Source: Escherichia coli (GTDB lineage Bacteria; Pseudomonadota; Gammaproteobacteria; Enterobacterales; Enterobacteriaceae). Taken from it: 64,000 bases of DNA. Shown here in pieces: positions 6,560 to 49,637 of this stretch. Position 1 is the stretch's first letter. Every line of letters starts with the position of its first letter. The stretch is taken from the NCBI RefSeq assembly GCF_003334385.1, contig NZ_QOWN01000018.1. One strand, written 5' to 3'. The position numbers and the translations under genes are program-made. Below the pieces are notes generated by a model. It searched no databases. It saw nothing but the letters and a program-made list of their open reading frames with translations, and had not been told where the DNA came from.

Positions 6560-6610
6560 TAATCTCTATGCTCCGGCTGAAGGGATGTTTTTGCCGGACA
6601 CAAAGGATAA

Positions 6611-35566: not shown

Positions 35567-35803
35567 ATGAGCACTATCGAAGAACGCGTTAAGAAAATTA
35601 TCGGCGAACAGCTGGGCGTTAAGCAGGAAGAAGTTACCAACAATGCTTCTTTCGTTGAAGACCTGGGCGCGGATTCTCTTGACACCGTTGAGCTGGTAAT
35701 GGCTCTGGAAGAAGAGTTTGATACTGAGATTCCGGACGAAGAAGCTGAGAAAATCACCACCGTTCAGGCTGCCATTGATTACATCAACGGCCACCAGGCG
35801 TAA
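35567..35803 (+). CDS. acpP: Acyl carrier protein
   Basis: ORF track 78 aa; phosphopantetheine attachment motif DLGADSLD. Confidence 0.98.
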
Positions 35804-35814
35804 GTGAACATCTC

Positions 35815-35850
35815 CAGGCGGTCGTTCGACCGCCTGAGTTTTATCTTTTT
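35815..35850 (+). terminator. Rho-independent terminator after acpP (partial read-through into fabF expected)
   Basis: Hairpin CAGGCGGTCG / CGACCGCCTG followed by AGTTTTATCTTTTT. Confidence 0.65.
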
Positions 35851-35860
35851 GTCCCACTAG

Positions 35861-37132
<1,272 letters not shown>

Positions 37133-37157
37133 GTTGTCATTTTCCACCCTTATAAAA

Positions 37158-37179
37158 GGTCCGCTTGCGGGCCTTTTTT
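37158..37179 (+). terminator. Rho-independent terminator after fabF
   Basis: GGTCCG-CTTG-CGGGCC followed by TTTTTT. Confidence 0.7.
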
Positions 37180-37251
37180 CTTAGCTTTTATTCCGACTTG
37201 TTCCGTAGTGAACATGCTGCCACACTAACAATTCTCTGATAAGGAGCCGGT

Positions 37252-38061
37252 ATGTTCTTAATTAACGGTCATAAGCAGGAATCGCTGGCAGTAAGCGATC
37301 GGGCAACGCAGTTTGGTGATGGTTGTTTTACCACCGCCAGAGTTATCGACGGTAAAGTCAGTTTGTTATCGGCGCATATCCAGCGACTACAGGATGCTTG
37401 TCAGCGGTTGATGATTTCCTGTGACTTCTGGCCTCAGCTTGAACAAGAGATGAAAACGCTGGCAGCAGAACAGCAAAATGGTGTGCTGAAAGTCGTGATC
37501 AGTCGCGGTAGTGGCGGGCGAGGGTACAGCACATTGAACAGCGGACCGGCAACGCGGATTCTCTCCGTTACGGCTTATCCTGCACATTACGACCGTTTGC
37601 GTAACGAGGGGATTACGTTGGCGCTAAGCCCGGTGCGGCTGGGGCGCAATCCTCATCTTGCAGGTATTAAACATCTCAATCGTCTTGAGCAAGTATTGAT
37701 TCGCTCTCATCTTGAGCAGACAAACGCTGATGAGGCGCTGGTCCTTGACAGCGAAGGGTGGGTTACGGAATGCTGTGCGGCTAATTTGTTCTGGCGGAAG
37801 GGCAACGTAGTTTATACGCCGCGACTGGATCAGGCAGGTGTTAACGGCATTATGCGACAATTCTGTATCCGTTTGCTGGCACAATCCTCTTATCAGCTTG
37901 TCGAAGTGCAAGCCTCTCTGGAAGAGTCGTTGCAGGCAGATGAGATGGTTATTTGTAATGCGTTAATGCCAGTGATGCCCGTATGTGCCTGTGGCGATGT
38001 CTCCTTTTCGTCAGCAACGTTATATGAATATTTAGCCCCACTTTGTGAGCGCCCGAATTAG
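37252..38061 (+). CDS. pabC: Aminodeoxychorismate lyase
   Basis: ORF track 269 aa. Confidence 0.95.
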
Positions 38062-38063
38062 TC

Positions 38064-39086
38064 ATGAAAAAAGTGTTATTGATAATCTTGTTATTGCTGG
38101 TGGTACTGGGTATCGCCGCTGGTGTGGGCGTCTGGAAGGTTCGCCATCTTGCCGACAGCAAATTGCTTATCAAAGAAGAGACGATATTTACCCTGAAGCC
38201 AGGGACCGGACGTCTGGCGCTCGGTGAACAGCTTTATGCCGATAAGATCATCAATCGTCCACGGGTTTTTCAATGGCTGCTGCGTATCGAACCGGATCTT
38301 TCTCACTTTAAAGCCGGGACTTACCGCTTTACACCGCAGATGACCGTGCGCGAGATGCTGAAATTGCTGGAAAGCGGTAAAGAAGCACAGTTCCCTCTGC
38401 GACTGGTAGAAGGGATGCGTCTGAGCGATTACCTCAAGCAATTGCGTGAGGCCCCGTATATCAAGCATACGCTGAGCGATGATAAGTACGCCACCGTAGC
38501 GCAGGCACTTGAACTGGAAAACCCGGAGTGGATTGAAGGTTGGTTCTGGCCAGACACCTGGATGTATACCGCCAATACCACCGATGTCGCGTTACTCAAG
38601 CGAGCGCACAAGAAAATGGTGAAAGCGGTCGATAGCGCATGGGAAGGGCGTGCGGACGGTCTGCCTTATAAAGATAAAAACCAGTTGGTGACGATGGCAT
38701 CAATTATCGAAAAAGAAACCGCCGTTGCCAGTGAACGCGATAAGGTTGCCTCAGTATTTATCAACCGTTTACGCATTGGTATGCGCCTGCAGACCGACCC
38801 GACCGTGATTTACGGGATGGGAGAGCGTTATAATGGCAAACTTTCTCGTGCAGACCTGGAAACGCCGACAGCGTATAACACCTATACCATTACCGGTCTG
38901 CCGCCAGGTGCGATAGCGACGCCGGGGGCGGATTCGCTGAAGGCTGCTGCGCATCCGGCAAAAACGCCGTATCTCTATTTTGTGGCCGATGGTAAAGGTG
39001 GTCACACGTTTAATACCAATCTTGCCAGTCATAACAAGTCTGTGCAGGATTATCTGAAAGTGCTTAAGGAAAAAAATGCGCAGTAA
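38064..39086 (+). CDS. mltG: Endolytic murein transglycosylase MltG (YceG)
   Basis: ORF track 340 aa, N-terminal transmembrane helix. Confidence 0.95.
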
Positions 39087-39717
39087 GTATATCGTCATTG
39101 AGGGGCTGGAAGGCGCAGGCAAAACTACCGCGCGTAATGTGGTGGTTGAGACGCTCGAGCAACTGGGTATCCGCGACATGGTTTTCACTCGGGAACCTGG
39201 CGGTACGCAACTTGCCGAAAAGTTAAGAAGCCTGGTGCTGGATATCAAATCGGTAGGCGATGAAGTCATTACCGATAAAGCCGAAGTTCTGATGTTTTAT
39301 GCCGCGCGCGTTCAACTGGTAGAAACGGTCATCAAACCAGCTCTGGCTAACGGCACCTGGGTGATTGGCGATCGCCACGATCTCTCCACTCAGGCGTATC
39401 AGGGCGGCGGACGTGGTATTGACCAACATATGCTGGCAACACTGCGTGATGCTGTTCTCGGGGATTTTCGCCCCGACTTAACGCTCTATCTCGATGTTAC
39501 CCCGGAAGTTGGCTTAAAACGCGCGCGTGCGCGCGGCGAGCTGGATCGTATTGAGCAAGAATCTTTCGATTTCTTTAATCGCACCCGCGCCCGCTATCTG
39601 GAACTGGCAGCACAAGATAAAAGCATTCATACCATTGATGCCACCCAGCCGCTGGAGGCCGTGATGGATGCAATCCGCACTACCGTGACCCACTGGGTGA
39701 AGGAGTTGGACGCATGA
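39076..39717 (+). CDS. tmk: Thymidylate kinase
   Basis: ORF track 213 aa; P-loop GLEGAGKTT; overlaps the mltG 3' end by 11 nt. Confidence 0.97.
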
Positions 39718-40718
39718 GATGGTATCCATGGTTACGACCTGATTTCGAAAAACTGGTAGCCAGCTATCAGGCCGGAAGAGGTCACCATGCGCTACTCATT
39801 CAGGCGTTACCGGGCATGGGCGATGATGCTTTAATCTACGCCCTGAGCCGTTATTTACTCTGCCAACAACCGCAGGGCCACAAAAGTTGCGGTCACTGTC
39901 GTGGATGTCAGTTGATGCAGGCTGGCACGCATCCCGATTACTACACCCTGGCTCCCGAAAAAGGAAAAAATACGCTGGGCGTTGATGCGGTACGTGAGGT
40001 CACCGAAAAGCTGAATGAGCACGCACGCTTAGGTGGTGCGAAAGTCGTTTGGGTAACCGATGCTGCCTTACTAACCGACGCCGCGGCTAACGCATTGCTG
40101 AAAACGCTTGAAGAGCCACCAGCAGAAACCTGGTTTTTCCTGGCTACCCGCGAGCCTGAACGTTTACTGGCAACATTACGTAGTCGTTGTCGGTTACATT
40201 ACCTTGCGCCGCCGCCGGAACAGTACGCCGTGACCTGGCTTTCACGCGAAGTGACAATGTCACAGGATGCATTACTTGCCGCATTGCGCTTAAGCGCCGG
40301 TTCGCCTGGCGCGGCACTGGCGTTGTTTCAGGGAGATAACTGGCAGGCTCGTGAAACATTGTGTCAGGCGTTGGCATATAGCGTGCCATCGGGCGACTGG
40401 TATTCGCTGCTAGCGGCCCTTAATCATGAACAAGCTCCGGCGCGTTTACACTGGCTGGCAACGTTGCTGATGGATGCGCTAAAACGCCATCATGGTGCTG
40501 CGCAGGTGACCAATGTTGATGTGCCGGGCCTGGTCGCCGAACTGGCAAACCATCTTTCTCCCTCGCGCCTGCAGGCTATACTGGGGGATGTTTGCCACAT
40601 TCGTGAACAGTTAATGTCTGTTACAGGCATCAACCGCGAGCTTCTCATCACCGATCTTTTACTGCGTATTGAGCATTACCTGCAACCGGGCGTTGTGCTA
40701 CCGGTTCCTCATCTTTAA
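39714..40718 (+). CDS. holB: DNA polymerase III delta-prime subunit
   Basis: ORF track 334 aa; ATGA overlap with the tmk stop. Confidence 0.95.
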
Positions 40719-40728
40719 GAGAGACATC

Positions 40729-41526
40729 ATGTTTTTAGTCGACTCACACTGCCATCTCGATGGTCTGGATTATGAATCTTTGCATAAGGACGTGGATGAC
40801 GTTCTGGCGAAAGCCGCCGCACGCGATGTGAAATTTTGTCTGGCAGTCGCCACAACATTACCGGGTTATTTACATATGCGGGATCTGGTAGGCGAACGTG
40901 ACAACGTCGTATTTTCTTGTGGCGTGCATCCACTCAACCAGAATGATCCCTACGATGTAGAAGATTTACGCCGTCTGGCGGCAGAAGAGGGTGTTGTAGC
41001 GCTGGGTGAAACCGGGCTGGATTATTATTACACGCCGGAAACTAAAGTACGTCAGCAAGAGTCCTTCATCCATCATATCCAGATTGGTCGTGAACTGAAC
41101 AAGCCGGTTATCGTCCATACCCGTGACGCCCGTGCCGATACGCTGGCAATTCTGCGCGAAGAAAAAGTGACGGATTGCGGTGGCGTACTACACTGTTTTA
41201 CAGAGGACAGAGAAACGGCGGGTAAATTACTGGATCTCGGATTTTACATCTCCTTTTCCGGCATTGTGACCTTCCGTAATGCGGAGCAACTGCGCGATGC
41301 TGCGCGTTATGTCCCCCTGGATCGGTTACTGGTGGAAACTGACTCACCTTACCTTGCGCCGGTACCGCATCGAGGAAAAGAGAATCAACCTGCGATGGTT
41401 CGTGACGTTGCAGAATACATGGCTGTGTTGAAAGGTGTTGCCGTTGAAGAACTGGCGCAGGTAACCACCGATAACTTCGCCCGTCTGTTTCACATCGACG
41501 CTTCCCGCCTTCAATCCATCCGTTGA
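40729..41526 (+). CDS. ycfH: TatD-family metal-dependent hydrolase/nuclease YcfH
   Basis: ORF track 40669..41526; start placed at ATG 40729 ([16 protein letters not shown]...), 265 aa. Confidence 0.9.
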
Positions 41527-41700
41527 ATGAGTTTTTTTAAAGCTCGTAATTAATGGCTAAAACGAGTAAAGTTCACCGCCGAAAATTGGGCGGTGAATAA
41601 TCACGTTTGAAATATTGTGACATATGTTTTGTCAAAATGTGCAACTTCTCCAATGATCTGAAGTTGAAACGTGATAGCCGTCAAACAAATTGGCACTGAA

Positions 41701-41726
41701 TTATTTTACTCTGTGTAATAAATAAA
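41701..41726 (+). promoter_or_regulatory. Mlc-operator-like inverted repeat in the ptsG promoter region
   Basis: TTATTTTACTCTGTGTAATAAATAAA, with inverted TTATTT / AAATAA arms; about 95 bp upstream of the ptsG ATG. Confidence 0.5.
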
Positions 41727-41820
41727 GGGCGCTTAGATGCCCTGTACACGGCGAGGCTCTCCCCCCTTGCCACGCGTGAGAACGTAAAAAAAGCACCCAT
41801 ACTCAGGAGCACTCTCAATT

Positions 41821-43254
41821 ATGTTTAAGAATGCATTTGCTAACCTGCAAAAGGTCGGTAAATCGCTGATGCTGCCGGTATCCGTACTGCCTATCGCAGG
41901 TATTCTGCTGGGCGTCGGTTCCGCGAATTTCAGCTGGCTGCCCGCCGTTGTATCGCATGTTATGGCAGAAGCAGGCGGTTCCGTCTTTGCAAACATGCCA
42001 CTGATTTTTGCGATCGGTGTCGCCCTCGGCTTTACCAATAACGATGGCGTATCCGCGCTGGCCGCAGTTGTTGCCTATGGCATCATGGTTAAAACCATGG
42101 CCGTGGTTGCGCCACTGGTACTGCATTTACCTGCTGAAGAAATCGCCTCTAAACACCTGGCGGATACTGGCGTACTCGGAGGGATTATCTCCGGTGCGAT
42201 CGCAGCGTACATGTTTAACCGTTTCTACCGTATTAAGCTGCCTGAGTATCTTGGCTTCTTTGCCGGTAAACGCTTTGTGCCGATCATTTCTGGCCTGGCT
42301 GCCATCTTTACTGGCGTTGTGCTGTCCTTCATTTGGCCGCCGATTGGTTCTGCAATCCAGACCTTCTCTCAGTGGGCTGCTTACCAGAACCCGGTAGTTG
42401 CGTTTGGCATTTACGGTTTCATCGAACGTTGCCTGGTACCGTTTGGTCTGCACCACATCTGGAACGTACCTTTCCAGATGCAGATTGGTGAATACACCAA
42501 CGCAGCAGGTCAGGTTTTCCACGGCGACATTCCGCGTTATATGGCGGGTGACCCGACTGCGGGTAAACTGTCTGGTGGCTTCCTGTTCAAAATGTACGGT
42601 CTGCCAGCTGCCGCAATTGCTATCTGGCACTCTGCTAAACCAGAAAACCGCGCGAAAGTGGGCGGTATTATGATCTCCGCGGCGCTGACCTCGTTCCTGA
42701 CCGGTATCACCGAGCCGATCGAGTTCTCCTTCATGTTCGTTGCGCCGATCCTGTACATCATCCACGCGATTCTGGCAGGCCTGGCATTCCCAATCTGTAT
42801 TCTTCTGGGGATGCGTGACGGTACGTCGTTCTCGCACGGTCTGATCGACTTCATCGTTCTGTCTGGTAACAGCAGCAAACTGTGGCTGTTCCCGATCGTC
42901 GGTATCGGTTATGCGATTGTTTACTACACCATCTTCCGCGTGCTGATTAAAGCACTGGATCTGAAAACGCCGGGTCGTGAAGACGCGACTGAAGATGCAA
43001 AAGCGACAGGTACCAGCGAAATGGCACCGGCTCTGGTTGCTGCATTTGGTGGTAAAGAAAACATTACTAACCTCGACGCATGTATTACCCGTCTGCGCGT
43101 CAGCGTTGCTGATGTGTCTAAAGTGGATCAGGCCGGCCTGAAGAAACTGGGCGCAGCGGGCGTAGTGGTTGCTGGTTCTGGTGTTCAGGCGATTTTCGGT
43201 ACTAAATCCGATAACCTGAAAACCGAGATGGATGAGTACATCCGTAACCACTAA
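41821..43254 (+). CDS. ptsG: Glucose-specific PTS enzyme IICB
   Basis: ORF track 477 aa. Confidence 0.98.
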
Positions 43255-45836: not shown

Positions 45837-46196
45837 GTGGCAGAAGAAACTATATTCAGCAAAATTATTCGTCGTGAGATCCCCTCCGATATCGTCTACC
45901 AGGATGATCTGGTAACGGCGTTTCGCGATATTTCGCCGCAAGCGCCAACGCATATTCTGATCATTCCGAATATCCTCATTCCGACTGTGAACGACGTCTC
46001 AGCTGAGCATGAGCAGGCGCTGGGACGCATGATCACCGTAGCGGCAAAAATTGCTGAGCAAGAAGGTATTGCCGAAGATGGCTATCGTCTGATCATGAAT
46101 ACCAACCGCCATGGCGGACAAGAGGTTTACCACATCCATATGCACTTGTTGGGTGGCCGTCCGCTGGGACCAATGCTGGCGCATAAAGGTCTGTAA
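45837..46196 (+). CDS. hinT: HIT-family purine nucleoside phosphoramidase
   Basis: ORF track 45819..46196; start placed at GTG 45837 ([16 protein letters not shown]...), 119 aa; histidine-triad HIHMHLLGG. Confidence 0.9.
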
Positions 46197-46198
46197 CG

Positions 46199-46576
46199 AT
46201 GAGAAAAGGATGCTTTGGGCTGGTGTCTCTGGTGTTGTTACTGCTGGTGGGCTGTCGTTCACATCCGGAAATTCCGGTGAATGATGAGCAATCGCTGGTG
46301 ATGGAGTCATCTTTATTGGCTGCGGGCATCAGTGCAGAAAAGCCCTTCCTTTCGACGTCTGATATTCAACCTTCAGCATCCTCAACGCTTTATAACGAAA
46401 GGCAAGAACCCGTTACCGTTCATTATCGTTTTTACTGGTATGACGCCAGAGGGCTGGAGATGCATCCTCTGGAAAGGCCACGCAGCGTTACCATTCCCGC
46501 ACATTCGGCGGTAACGCTGTACGGCAGCGCCAATTTTCTGGGGGCGCACAAAGTCAGACTTTATCTATATTTGTAA
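46199..46576 (+). CDS. ycfL: Uncharacterised lipoprotein YcfL
   Basis: ORF track 125 aa; lipobox signal MRKGCFGLVSLVLLLLVGC. Confidence 0.85.
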   Translation: MRKGCFGLVSLVLLLLVGCRSHPEIPVNDEQSLVMESSLLAAGISAEKPFLSTSDIQPSASSTLYNERQEPVTVHYRFYWYDARGLEMHPLERPRSVTIPAHSAVTLYGSANFLGAHKVRLYLYL

Positions 46577-46589
46577 GGGGTGAATCTTG

Positions 46590-47211
46590 ATGACAAAAAT
46601 GAGTCGCTACGCCTTGATTACCGCGCTGGCGATGTTTCTCGCCGGGTGTGTGGGGCAACGTGAACCTGCACCGGTAGAAGAAGTGAAACCAGCGCCGGAA
46701 CAACCAGCCGAGCCACAACAGCCTGTCCCCACAGTGCCCTCGGTGCCGACGATCCCGCAGCAGCCAGGCCCAATTGAGCACGAAGATCAAACTGCACCGC
46801 CTGCGCCGCATATTCGCCATTATGACTGGAATGGCGCAATGCAGCCGATGGTCAGTAAGATGCTTGGGGCTGACGGGGTGACTGCGGGTAGCGTCCTGCT
46901 GGTTGATAGCGTTAACAACCGTACTAACGGTTCGCTGAATGCCGCAGAAGCGACCGAAACGCTGCGAAATGCGCTGGCTAATAACGGGAAATTTACCCTG
47001 GTTTCCGCCCAGCAACTGTCGATGGCGAAGCAACAGTTAGGTTTGTCGCCGCAGGACAGTTTAGGCACCCGTAGTAAAGCCATAGGCATTGCCCGCAATG
47101 TCGGCGCTCATTACGTGCTGTACTCCAGCGCCTCTGGCAACGTTAACGCTCCGACCCTACAAATGCAGCTGATGCTGGTGCAGACGGGCGAAATTATCTG
47201 GTCAGGTAAAG

Positions 47212-47231
<20 letters not shown>
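46590..47231 (+). CDS. lpoB: Outer-membrane lipoprotein activator of PBP1b (LpoB)
   Basis: ORF track 46587..47231; ATG 46590 gives [20 protein letters not shown] lipobox, then Pro-rich linker, 213 aa. Confidence 0.9.
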
Positions 47232-49072
<1,841 letters not shown>

Positions 49073-49094
49073 CCCTGGCTTATGTGAGGAAGCG

Positions 49095-49637
49095 ATGATT
49101 ATCTATTTACACGGTTTTGACTCTAACAGTCCGGGTAACCACGAGAAAGTCTTACAATTGCAGTTTATTGACCCGGATGTACGCTTGATAAGCTACAGTA
49201 CGCGGCATCCGAAACATGATATGCAGCATCTGCTTAAAGAAGTGGACAAAATGTTGCAACTGAACGTTGACGAGCGTCCGCTAATTTGCGGCGTTGGCTT
49301 GGGCGGATACTGGGCGGAACGGATTGGTTTTCTTTGCGACATCCGCCAGGTGATCTTCAACCCTAATTTGTTCCCTTATGAGAACATGGAAGGCAAGATT
49401 GATCGCCCGGAAGAGTATGCCGATATTGCCACTAAGTGTGTGACCAACTTCCGTGAGAAGAATCGCGATCGTTGCCTGGTGATTTTGTCGCGTAATGATG
49501 AAGCGCTTAACAGCCAGCGGACATCTGAAGAGTTGCATCATTATTACGAGATTGTCTGGGACGAAGAGCAGACGCACAAATTCAAGAATATCTCCCCGCA
49601 TTTACAGCGCATTAAAGCGTTCAAAACCCTCGGGTAA
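49095..49637 (+). CDS. ycfP: UPF0227 alpha/beta-hydrolase-fold protein YcfP
   Basis: ORF track 49038..49637; start placed at ATG 49095 ([15 protein letters not shown]...), 180 aa. Confidence 0.85.

Follow-up and report, generated by a model that had tools for sequence, protein, structure and literature searches.

Junction geometry and probable translational coupling in the known pabC-mltG-tmk-holB-ycfH operon of Escherichia coli

Known systems and identity of the locus

In gammaproteobacteria, tmk typically adjoins holB, with mltG on its other side (PMC10653934). Pseudomonas putida and P. aeruginosa carry the locus pabC-mltG(PA2963)-tmk-holB-pilZ-tatD, in which the order fabF-pabC-mltG-tmk-holB is the same as in E. 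coli; the overlap lengths differ, the tmk/holB distance being -8 in five Pseudomonas loci. In P. putida, tmk overlaps holB, translational coupling of holB to tmk has been assumed and engineered, and in strain KT2440 a genomic island splits tmk (PMC10653934). The pabC and PA2963 genes of P. aeruginosa have been drawn among predicted operons with folate and peptidoglycan genes (bioRxiv 10.1101/2023.11.22.568328). Many non-enteric lineages, unlike E. coli, have a PilZ-domain gene between holB and the ycfH homologue.

Genome-wide in E. coli, 707 of 2,987 unidirectional gene pairs are spaced at -8 to +6 nt and 203 at +9 to +12 nt (PMC10666635). The partners in the present locus are not subunits of one complex, in which they resemble about 70% of the closely packed gene pairs of E. 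coli (PMC10666635).

The window analyzed here, a stretch of 64,000 nt from an E. coli contig, contained the pabC-mltG(yceG)-tmk-holB-ycfH locus of E. coli K-12, with identical order, coordinates and junctions and no difference from it. The RefSeq CDS coordinates on a 100%-identical E. coli chromosome matched exactly, and of 5426 complete E. coli genomes, 5425 carried a single copy of the stretch at an identity of at least 95%. The block is a well-known, annotated housekeeping operon of E. coli, ordinary and already known, and it maps to about 24 min in K-12. The fab cluster was located directly upstream of it, and the flanking genes were fabF and ptsG.

Comparison with NCBIfam models showed that all five proteins (PabC, MltG, Tmk, HolB, and YcfH) scored above the equivalog cut-offs (Table 1), which confirmed the names that the sequence-only reading had given to mltG, tmk, holB and ycfH. 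MltG also matched TIGR00247 (527 bits), HolB matched TIGR00678 (198.9 bits, cut-off 180.6), and YcfH matched TIGR00010 (323 bits, cut-off 206). The P-loop residues G15 and K16 of Tmk, within GAGKT, were invariant across the alignments. For YcfH, the word "nuclease" would apply at the level of the family only, because the NCBI name is merely "metal-dependent hydrolase" and the protein is listed as uncharacterized (PMC11481867).

Table 1. Features of the block and of a downstream operon, with positions in the window
Feature	Position	Strand	Details
Intrinsic-terminator-like hairpin 3' of fabF	37153..37182	+	AAAAGGTCCG-CTTG-CGGGCCTTTTTT; RNA fold, 10-bp stem, then T run
pabC, aminodeoxychorismate lyase	37252..38061	+	NF004761, 430.8 bits (cut-off 260); TIGR03461, 379.3 bits (cut-off 176.85)
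mltG (yceG), endolytic murein transglycosylase	38064..39086	+	NF007619, 767.6 bits (cut-off 532), residues 1-340
mltG/tmk junction	39065..39086	+	SD AAGGA 39065-39069; A7 run 39070-39076; tmk ATG 39076-39078; mltG TAA 39084-39086
tmk, dTMP kinase	39076..39717	+	TIGR00041, 234.3 bits (cut-off 83.25)
tmk/holB junction	39698..39717	+	SD AAGGAG 39698-39703; ATGA 39714-39717; holB ATG 39714-39716; tmk TGA 39715-39717
holB, DNA polymerase III delta' clamp-loader subunit	39714..40718	+	NF005941, 639.6 bits (cut-off 477), residues 1-334; TAA 40716-40718
holB/ycfH spacer (10 nt)	40719..40728	+	GAGAGACATC; moderate SD-like AAGAGAG spanning the holB stop
ycfH, TatD-family metal-dependent hydrolase	40729..41526	+	NF008075, 576.7 bits (cut-off 438); ATG 40729-40731
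Two stable hairpins just 3' of the ycfH stop	41520..41598	+	RNA fold
hinT-ycfL-lpoB-thiK-nagZ-ycfP operon	45837-49637		Gaps +2, +13, -20, +10, +22 nt

Extent and transcription of the block

The gaps at pabC/mltG, mltG/tmk, tmk/holB and holB/ycfH were +2, -11, -4 and +10 nt, respectively; the neighbors at the four junctions were co-oriented, with starts that overlapped the upstream stop or lay within about 10 nt of it. The last three values agreed with the sequence-only reading, which had described an 11-nt mltG/tmk overlap (seen in the sequence, the ORF calls and RefSeq alike), a shared ATGA (4-nt overlap) at tmk/holB and a 10-nt spacer before ycfH. Its extent of the block, mltG to ycfH, was too short: pabC had been left out, and because pabC stops 2 nt before mltG, the tightly packed genes number five and the junctions four. 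In the window, 13 of 42 same-strand neighbor pairs were spaced by 10 nt or less and 4 overlapped; the tight junctions of this locus are no more than operon organization ordinarily gives.

The fabF hairpin bounds the block upstream, and published data indicate that it is leaky (PMC6131387). The two hairpins after ycfH folded at -33.8 kcal/mol, compared with -17.4 ± 2.8 kcal/mol for shuffles (z = -5.9); the second had a 10-bp GC-rich stem (TTCACCGCC...GGCGGTGAA) and a poor T tail. From its position and predicted fold, this double hairpin was taken as the putative downstream boundary. A gap of 294 nt then precedes ptsG. An Rfam scan of the block returned no RNA family, and ORFs on the opposite strand, among them 38769-39269 (-) with its 166 aa, were regarded as coding-strand shadows.

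The gaps between the genes would leave no space for terminators, so the five genes are probably largely co-transcribed. The sources of transcription would be a pabC-proximal start and read-through past the fabF terminator, and an additional reported start inside mltG would feed tmk-holB. The "one transcript" proposed from the sequence therefore held as an operon-like block and was too simple as a description of its transcripts, because SMRT-Cappable-seq showed acpP-fabF transcripts that extend into pabC-mltG (PMC6131387) and a Cappable-seq analysis described a tmk-holB operon as having an intragenic promoter (PMC11195188). Given the reported intragenic promoter, part of tmk-holB expression would be independent of the translation and transcription of pabC-mltG. 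CRISPRi work in E. coli noted polarity between holB and mltG within the operon (PMC8510551).

A stronger form of subdivision, in which tmk-holB(-ycfH) is transcribed as a unit of its own from a promoter within mltG, has somewhat less than an even chance of being correct; that envelope (pabC-mltG) and replication (tmk-holB) expression are largely independent despite the overlaps is likewise a little less probable than the contrary. The intragenic promoters named by the Cappable-seq-based analysis point in this direction, as does the finding that inserted promoters restored fitness, and mltG contains the block's single perfect + strand TATAAT (38829-38834), 247 nt 5' of tmk. However, this hexamer has a poor -35 (3/6), is largely due to conserved Tyr-Asn codons and is present in 9 of 12 Enterobacterales, and a consensus scan of the region found promoter-like sites without excess over shuffles (5 vs. 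6.3). The same was true of terminator-like sites in the region (7 vs. 7.5). Moreover, an internal promoter supplements the long transcript and abolishes neither that transcript nor coupling on it.

Translation at the junctions

The locus is very probably a well-known operon that is largely co-transcribed, with translational coupling at its three closest junctions and an inherited gammaproteobacterial gene order. Coupling is plausible for pabC/mltG, mltG/tmk and tmk/holB, judging from their spacing, and would be less so for ycfH. The literature yielded no experiment on any of these junctions, and we therefore infer coupling only from junction spacing and from experimental work on other pairs of E. 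coli genes.

The duplex with the anti-Shine-Dalgarno sequence was estimated at -8.5 kcal/mol for pabC (strong SD, TAAGGAG), -1.9 for mltG, -6.1 for tmk, -8.3 for holB and -5.4 for ycfH, against a background of -2.7 ± 2.3 kcal/mol. Thus, mltG was the sole gene of the block without a Shine-Dalgarno match. Since it also starts 2 nt past the pabC stop, mltG probably depends on ribosomes that finish pabC, and pabC/mltG, which the sequence-only reading left out, is the junction most needing coupling. Its distance of +2 lies inside the range of -8 to +10 held to be predictive of reinitiation (PMC10666635), while the -11 of mltG/tmk lies just outside it. The ATGA of tmk/holB belongs to the commonest class among the termination-reinitiation pairs described by Huber et al. 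2019/2023 (PMC6728339, PMC10666635). Translation of tmk starts 11 nt and that of holB 4 nt ahead of the stop of the respective upstream gene, which also harbors an SD for the start in question; with such good SDs, both genes could also initiate independently. Reinitiation efficiency in E. coli drops steeply with distance, and spacers of +9 to +12 nt are regarded as probably independent (PMC10666635). The +10 of holB/ycfH falls there, and for ycfH, with its own SD-like element, independent initiation would be more likely.

Termination-reinitiation, or alternatively unfolding, would most likely couple translation at the three closest junctions. The junction RNAs all folded no better than shuffles (z from -0.25 to +1.7), and at holB/ycfH the local RNA was less structured than shuffles (z = +1.7). 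The "unfolding" type of coupling is therefore unsupported, and RNA structure as a coupling device at these junctions was rejected.

It is rather unlikely that the packing reflects compaction only, with overlaps produced by genome streamlining and stop-codon drift and no functional coupling; de novo initiation of each cistron from its own Shine-Dalgarno sequence, which this would entail, appears similarly doubtful. The SD matches of tmk, holB and ycfH exceed the background, the start regions are not sequestered in RNA structure, the +10 spacer before ycfH belongs to the class regarded as independent, and the overlap length drifts between lineages (-11, -4, -1, and small positive gaps), all of which agree with compaction. 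However, it leaves the start of mltG, without any SD and 2 nt after the pabC stop, unaccounted for. [quoted passage not shown]

The motif AAGGAnAAnAATGnnCAGTAA and the 11-nt mltG/tmk overlap were kept in 12 of 12 aligned Enterobacterales (E. coli and 11 others). The run AAAAAAA falls directly on the tmk start, and relative to mltG the frame of tmk is +1, as a programmed slippage site giving an MltG-Tmk fusion or setting the ratio of both proteins would have it. There is hardly any probability of such a function. Of the 12 Enterobacterales with the overlap, 6 had an interrupted run (AAGGATAAAAATG, AAGGATAAGAATG, AAGGAAAACCATG, AAGAATAAGAATG), and a stimulatory structure was absent at the junction (z = -0.25). 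Since MltG has its C-terminus in the periplasm, joining it to a cytoplasmic kinase would be senseless. An A-rich stretch is the normal look of a spacer between SD and ATG. Frameshifting or fusion at the A7 run was thus effectively excluded by the interrupted run, the missing structure and the topology of MltG.

Gene order in Gammaproteobacteria and meaning of the linkage

Synteny was surveyed in the best 80 loci found through a 12-sequence Tmk alignment, all from Gammaproteobacteria. The order was kept throughout the sampled Gammaproteobacteria: among these best 80 loci, MltG and Tmk were adjacent in 75 and Tmk and HolB in 77. Overlaps were found in 34 of 58 pabC/mltG, 40 of 75 mltG/tmk and 50 of 77 tmk/holB junctions, with start codons picked by a heuristic, so that individual distances may be off. 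The commonest junction distance in the best 80 loci was -4 nt, which was also the mode for tmk/holB (18/77), and the mltG/tmk distance was -11 in 12 of 75 loci; the peaks at -4, -1, -8 and -11 argue that the distances are mostly right. The holB-ycfH link was loose, with a distance of 15 nt or less in only 21 of 57 and of more than 200 nt in 22 of 57 of the best 80 loci, and a PilZ-domain gene often intervened.

The arrangement is an inherited gammaproteobacterial gene order and not a special E. coli device; the oldest core of this order is tmk-holB. The mix of envelope and replication functions had been called unusual from the sequence, a view contradicted by the same order across the sampled Gammaproteobacteria and by a similar mixed operon in the window itself. 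This is the hinT-ycfL-lpoB-thiK-nagZ-ycfP operon 4 kb downstream, a mixed-function housekeeping operon of like geometry and unrelated genes (Table 1). It combines a nucleotide phosphoramidase, a PBP activator, a thiamine kinase and a peptidoglycan-recycling hydrolase, and as an internal control it demonstrates how ordinary such mixes are.

There is a slim chance that the pabC-mltG-tmk-holB linkage was selected, with coupling at the ribosome fixing the ratio of the cell-wall enzyme to the proteins of DNA-precursor synthesis and replication. The roles in such a linkage would be folate for dTMP synthesis (pabC), glycan strand termination (mltG), conversion of dTMP to dTDP (tmk) and clamp loading (holB). 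If true, envelope growth would be coordinated with chromosome replication, and mltG, having no SD, would be strictly dependent on pabC translation.

The discovery value of the locus is small, since every E. coli genome has it annotated and earlier work describes both its synteny and the tmk-holB overlap. It has a practical bearing all the same: tmk and holB are essential, and therefore editing or recoding of pabC or mltG, or CRISPRi directed at them, can act on both through polarity or coupling; such effects have been met in recoded-genome and CRISPRi papers. For termination-reinitiation, the start of mltG, lacking an SD and 2 nt past pabC, would offer a simple test case in a native setting.

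Locus and junctions

The window was identified as E. coli chromosome: bases 37100–41800 were found once per genome in 5425 of 5426 complete E. coli genomes (at least 95% identity), with 100% identity in several strains. Gene coordinates were converted one-to-one from a RefSeq record with 100% identity. All five proteins of the pabC-mltG(yceG)-tmk-holB-ycfH block passed curated NCBIfam equivalog cut-offs at full length. The mechanical ORF list started ycfH at a TTG (40669) and the annotation at an ATG; from the latter, the 265-aa protein matched NF008075 end to end. Calling YcfH a nuclease is a family-level inference, its NCBI name being only metal-dependent hydrolase.

Features of the window and ribosome-binding sites (SD, Shine-Dalgarno; duplex energy of the 20 nt upstream of the start with the 16S 3' end, in kcal/mol; background within the block −2.7 ± 2.3)
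Feature	Position	Strand	Basis	SD motif	SD energy
PyrC leader	6560–6609	−	Rfam, gathering level		
flgL	23985–24938	+	ORF		
rne 5' UTR element	28344–28680	−	Rfam, gathering level		
SraB sRNA	30541–30709	+	Rfam, gathering level		
fabF	35891–37132	+	RefSeq CDS		
Hairpin with T run	37153–37182	+	RNA fold		
pabC	37252–38061	+	RefSeq CDS	TAAGGAG	−8.5
yceG/mltG	38064–39086	+	RefSeq CDS	no motif	−1.9
TATAAT in mltG	38829–38834	+	Looser search		
tmk	39076–39717	+	RefSeq CDS	AAGGA	−6.1
holB	39714–40718	+	RefSeq CDS	AAGGAG	−8.3
Terminator-like match in holB	40118–40134	+	Consensus scan		
ycfH	40729–41526	+	RefSeq CDS	AAGAGAG	−5.4
Two hairpins	41520–41598	+	RNA fold		
ptsG	41821–43254	+	RefSeq CDS		
hinT-ycfL-lpoB-thiK-nagZ-ycfP	45837–49637	+			

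The three Rfam matches come as no surprise in this part of the E. coli chromosome. The 317-aa flgL ORF was intact; in SCU-104, otherwise the best-matching RefSeq strain, flgL is annotated as a pseudogene interrupted by a stop codon, so the window does not derive from SCU-104 itself.

Read directly, the sequence confirmed the junctions described in the sequence-only reading: an 11-nt mltG/tmk overlap (tmk ATG at 39076, mltG TAA at 39084–39086), the ATGA shared by tmk and holB (39714–39717, a 4-nt overlap), and a 10-nt spacer between the holB TAA (40716–40718) and the ycfH ATG (40729). That reading had left out pabC, whose stop (38059–38061) lies 2 nt upstream of the mltG ATG; the tight unit therefore comprises five genes joined at four junctions (+2, −11, −4, and +10 nt).

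This packing is not beyond the normal operon level. The first 50 kb of the window has 42 annotated same-strand neighbour pairs, of which 13 were at 10 nt or less and 4 overlapped. Genome-wide, 707 of 2,987 unidirectional E. coli pairs lie at −8 to +6 nt and a further 203 at +9 to +12 nt, −4 being the most frequent single distance (PMC10666635). A second tightly packed mixed-function operon, hinT-ycfL-lpoB-thiK-nagZ-ycfP, lay 4 kb downstream with the same geometry (+2, +13, −20, +10, and +22 nt). Its 20-nt lpoB/thiK overlap exceeds every overlap within the block.

Conservation of the gene order

A Tmk-anchored scan, with one genome per species, gave 80 loci, all from Gammaproteobacteria (including Enterobacterales, Pasteurellales, Vibrionales, Aeromonas, Alteromonadales, Legionella, Pseudomonadales, Methylococcales, and Chromatiales). 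Genes were identified by tblastn with E. coli proteins and by ORF models. Start codons were picked by a heuristic, and sharp peaks at −4, −1, −8, and −11 suggest that they were mostly right.

Junction distances at the surveyed loci (same-strand loci; negative values are overlaps)
Junction	Loci	Overlap	0–15 nt	>200 nt	Mode	Other peak
pabC/mltG	58	34	15	0	−4 (15 loci)	
mltG/tmk	75	40	15	1	−4 (19 loci)	−11 (12 loci)
tmk/holB	77	50	16	3	−4 (18 loci)	−8 (13 loci)
holB/ycfH	57	5	16	22	+10 (6 loci)	

Upstream, fabF and pabC were each present in 58 of the 80 loci, short contigs accounting for several absences. The −11 mltG/tmk loci were mainly Enterobacterales and carried the conserved motif AAGGAnAAnAATGnnCAGTAA. 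The holB-ycfH link was looser than the other junctions. In two large-gap non-enteric loci examined, L064 (8632–8988; Pfam PF07238, E = 1.7e-14) and L045 (8572–8898), a PilZ-domain ORF of about 110 aa lay between holB and the ycfH homologue; the Enterobacterales had no PilZ-domain ORF at this position. Other surveyed loci also had holB-ycfH gaps of more than 340 nt.

Insertions of 0.9–2.2 kb holding unrelated ORFs split tmk from holB in three loci from Thiobaca, Cellvibrio, and Cellvibrionaceae (L056, 7645–9404; L069, 7612–9805; L072, 7606–8519), with opposite-strand ORFs in the Cellvibrio insertion. These resemble P. putida KT2440, whose tmk is split by a genomic island, and insertions may recur at the tmk-holB boundary.

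Distant Tmk representatives were sampled by two look-ups. In a distant metagenomic lineage (L083, 2658–5150, and L084), a glycosyltransferase-9 gene overlapped tmk by 11 nt and tmk overlapped holB by 28 nt, with PSP1 and metG following holB; a tmk-holB pair with an upstream envelope gene thus recurs beyond the gammaproteobacterial arrangement. The second lineage had tmk apart from holB. Given the junction survey and these look-ups, tmk-holB looks like the oldest core, pabC-mltG like an addition across the sampled Gammaproteobacteria, and ycfH like the least fixed member. Two database clusters held near-identical E. coli Tmk with an N-terminal PF02548 domain (P0003, 316 aa) or about 220 additional C-terminal residues (P0121, 396 aa); these fusions, from single contigs, are probably assembly or gene-calling artefacts.

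Boundaries and internal promoters

RNA folding placed an intrinsic terminator-like hairpin with a T run directly 3' of fabF. It escaped the consensus terminator scan, probably since A-U pairs take up the T tail. Published long reads continue through it into pabC-mltG, the acpP-fabF operon being extended through both genes in full-length reads (PMC6131387). Right 3' of the ycfH stop, two very stable hairpins (−33.8 kcal/mol, z = −5.9) were found, the second GC-rich and without a good T tail, and ptsG follows after 294 nt. Possible roles are ycfH termination, mRNA stabilisation, or a part in the regulatory region upstream of ptsG.

The consensus scan of 35500–42000 showed no excess over shuffled sequences of promoter-like (5 vs 6.3 ± 3.2) or terminator-like sites (7 vs 7.5 ± 2.5). 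The only plus-strand terminator-like match inside the block, in holB, had a 5-bp stem and stayed at chance level. The block's only perfect plus-strand TATAAT lay within mltG, 247 nt before tmk, and its −35 element (GTGATT) is weak; the TATAAT overlies conserved Tyr-Asn codons and was kept in 9 of 12 Enterobacterales. This candidate may be the tmk-holB intragenic promoter of PMC11195188.

In the recoded-genome work, intragenic promoters of the tmk-holB operon were named from Cappable-seq, and promoter insertions in the fabH-ycfH region restored fitness (PMC11195188, PMC13287592). In gammaproteobacteria, tmk is typically beside holB with mltG on the opposite flank, and in P. putida the tmk end runs into holB, the pair being treated as translationally coupled (PMC10653934). 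A CRISPRi shape phenotype was explained by holB/mltG operon effects (PMC8510551), and a figure of predicted P. aeruginosa operons with folate and peptidoglycan genes shows both pabC and PA2963, the MltG homologue (bioRxiv preprint 10.1101/2023.11.22.568328). The locus is thus already known, its synteny, overlaps, and more than one transcript being on record. The published Cappable-seq promoters are in part what the sequence-only reading named as evidence against it; they weaken the proposal of one transcript but would leave coupling on the long mRNA intact.

Function and translational coupling

Overall, this is a conserved housekeeping operon of an ordinary kind. Genes tied to growth rate are commonly grouped in mixed-function operons. 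At least one sensible thread runs through the block: PabC makes the folate precursor that is required to form thymidylate, Tmk is the kinase acting on dTMP, and HolB loads the replicative clamp. What the sequence-only reading took for an unusual pairing of envelope and replication genes is a long-inherited gene order; the junctions first described stand, and their interpretation is partly supported.

Statements on coupling draw on the sequence and on published experiments with different gene pairs. At all junctions, RNA folding was never better than in shuffled sequence (z −0.25 to +1.7). Both tmk and holB could use reinitiation as well as their own SD. Pairs at +9 to +12 nt more likely initiate independently (PMC10666635), and ycfH, in this class, would more likely do so. 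Since mltG has no SD and starts 2 nt past the pabC stop, pabC/mltG would, of the four junctions, have the most plausible need for coupling. What this adds, and it is of mild use only, is that dependence on coupling would be most likely for mltG rather than for the genes stressed in the sequence-only reading.
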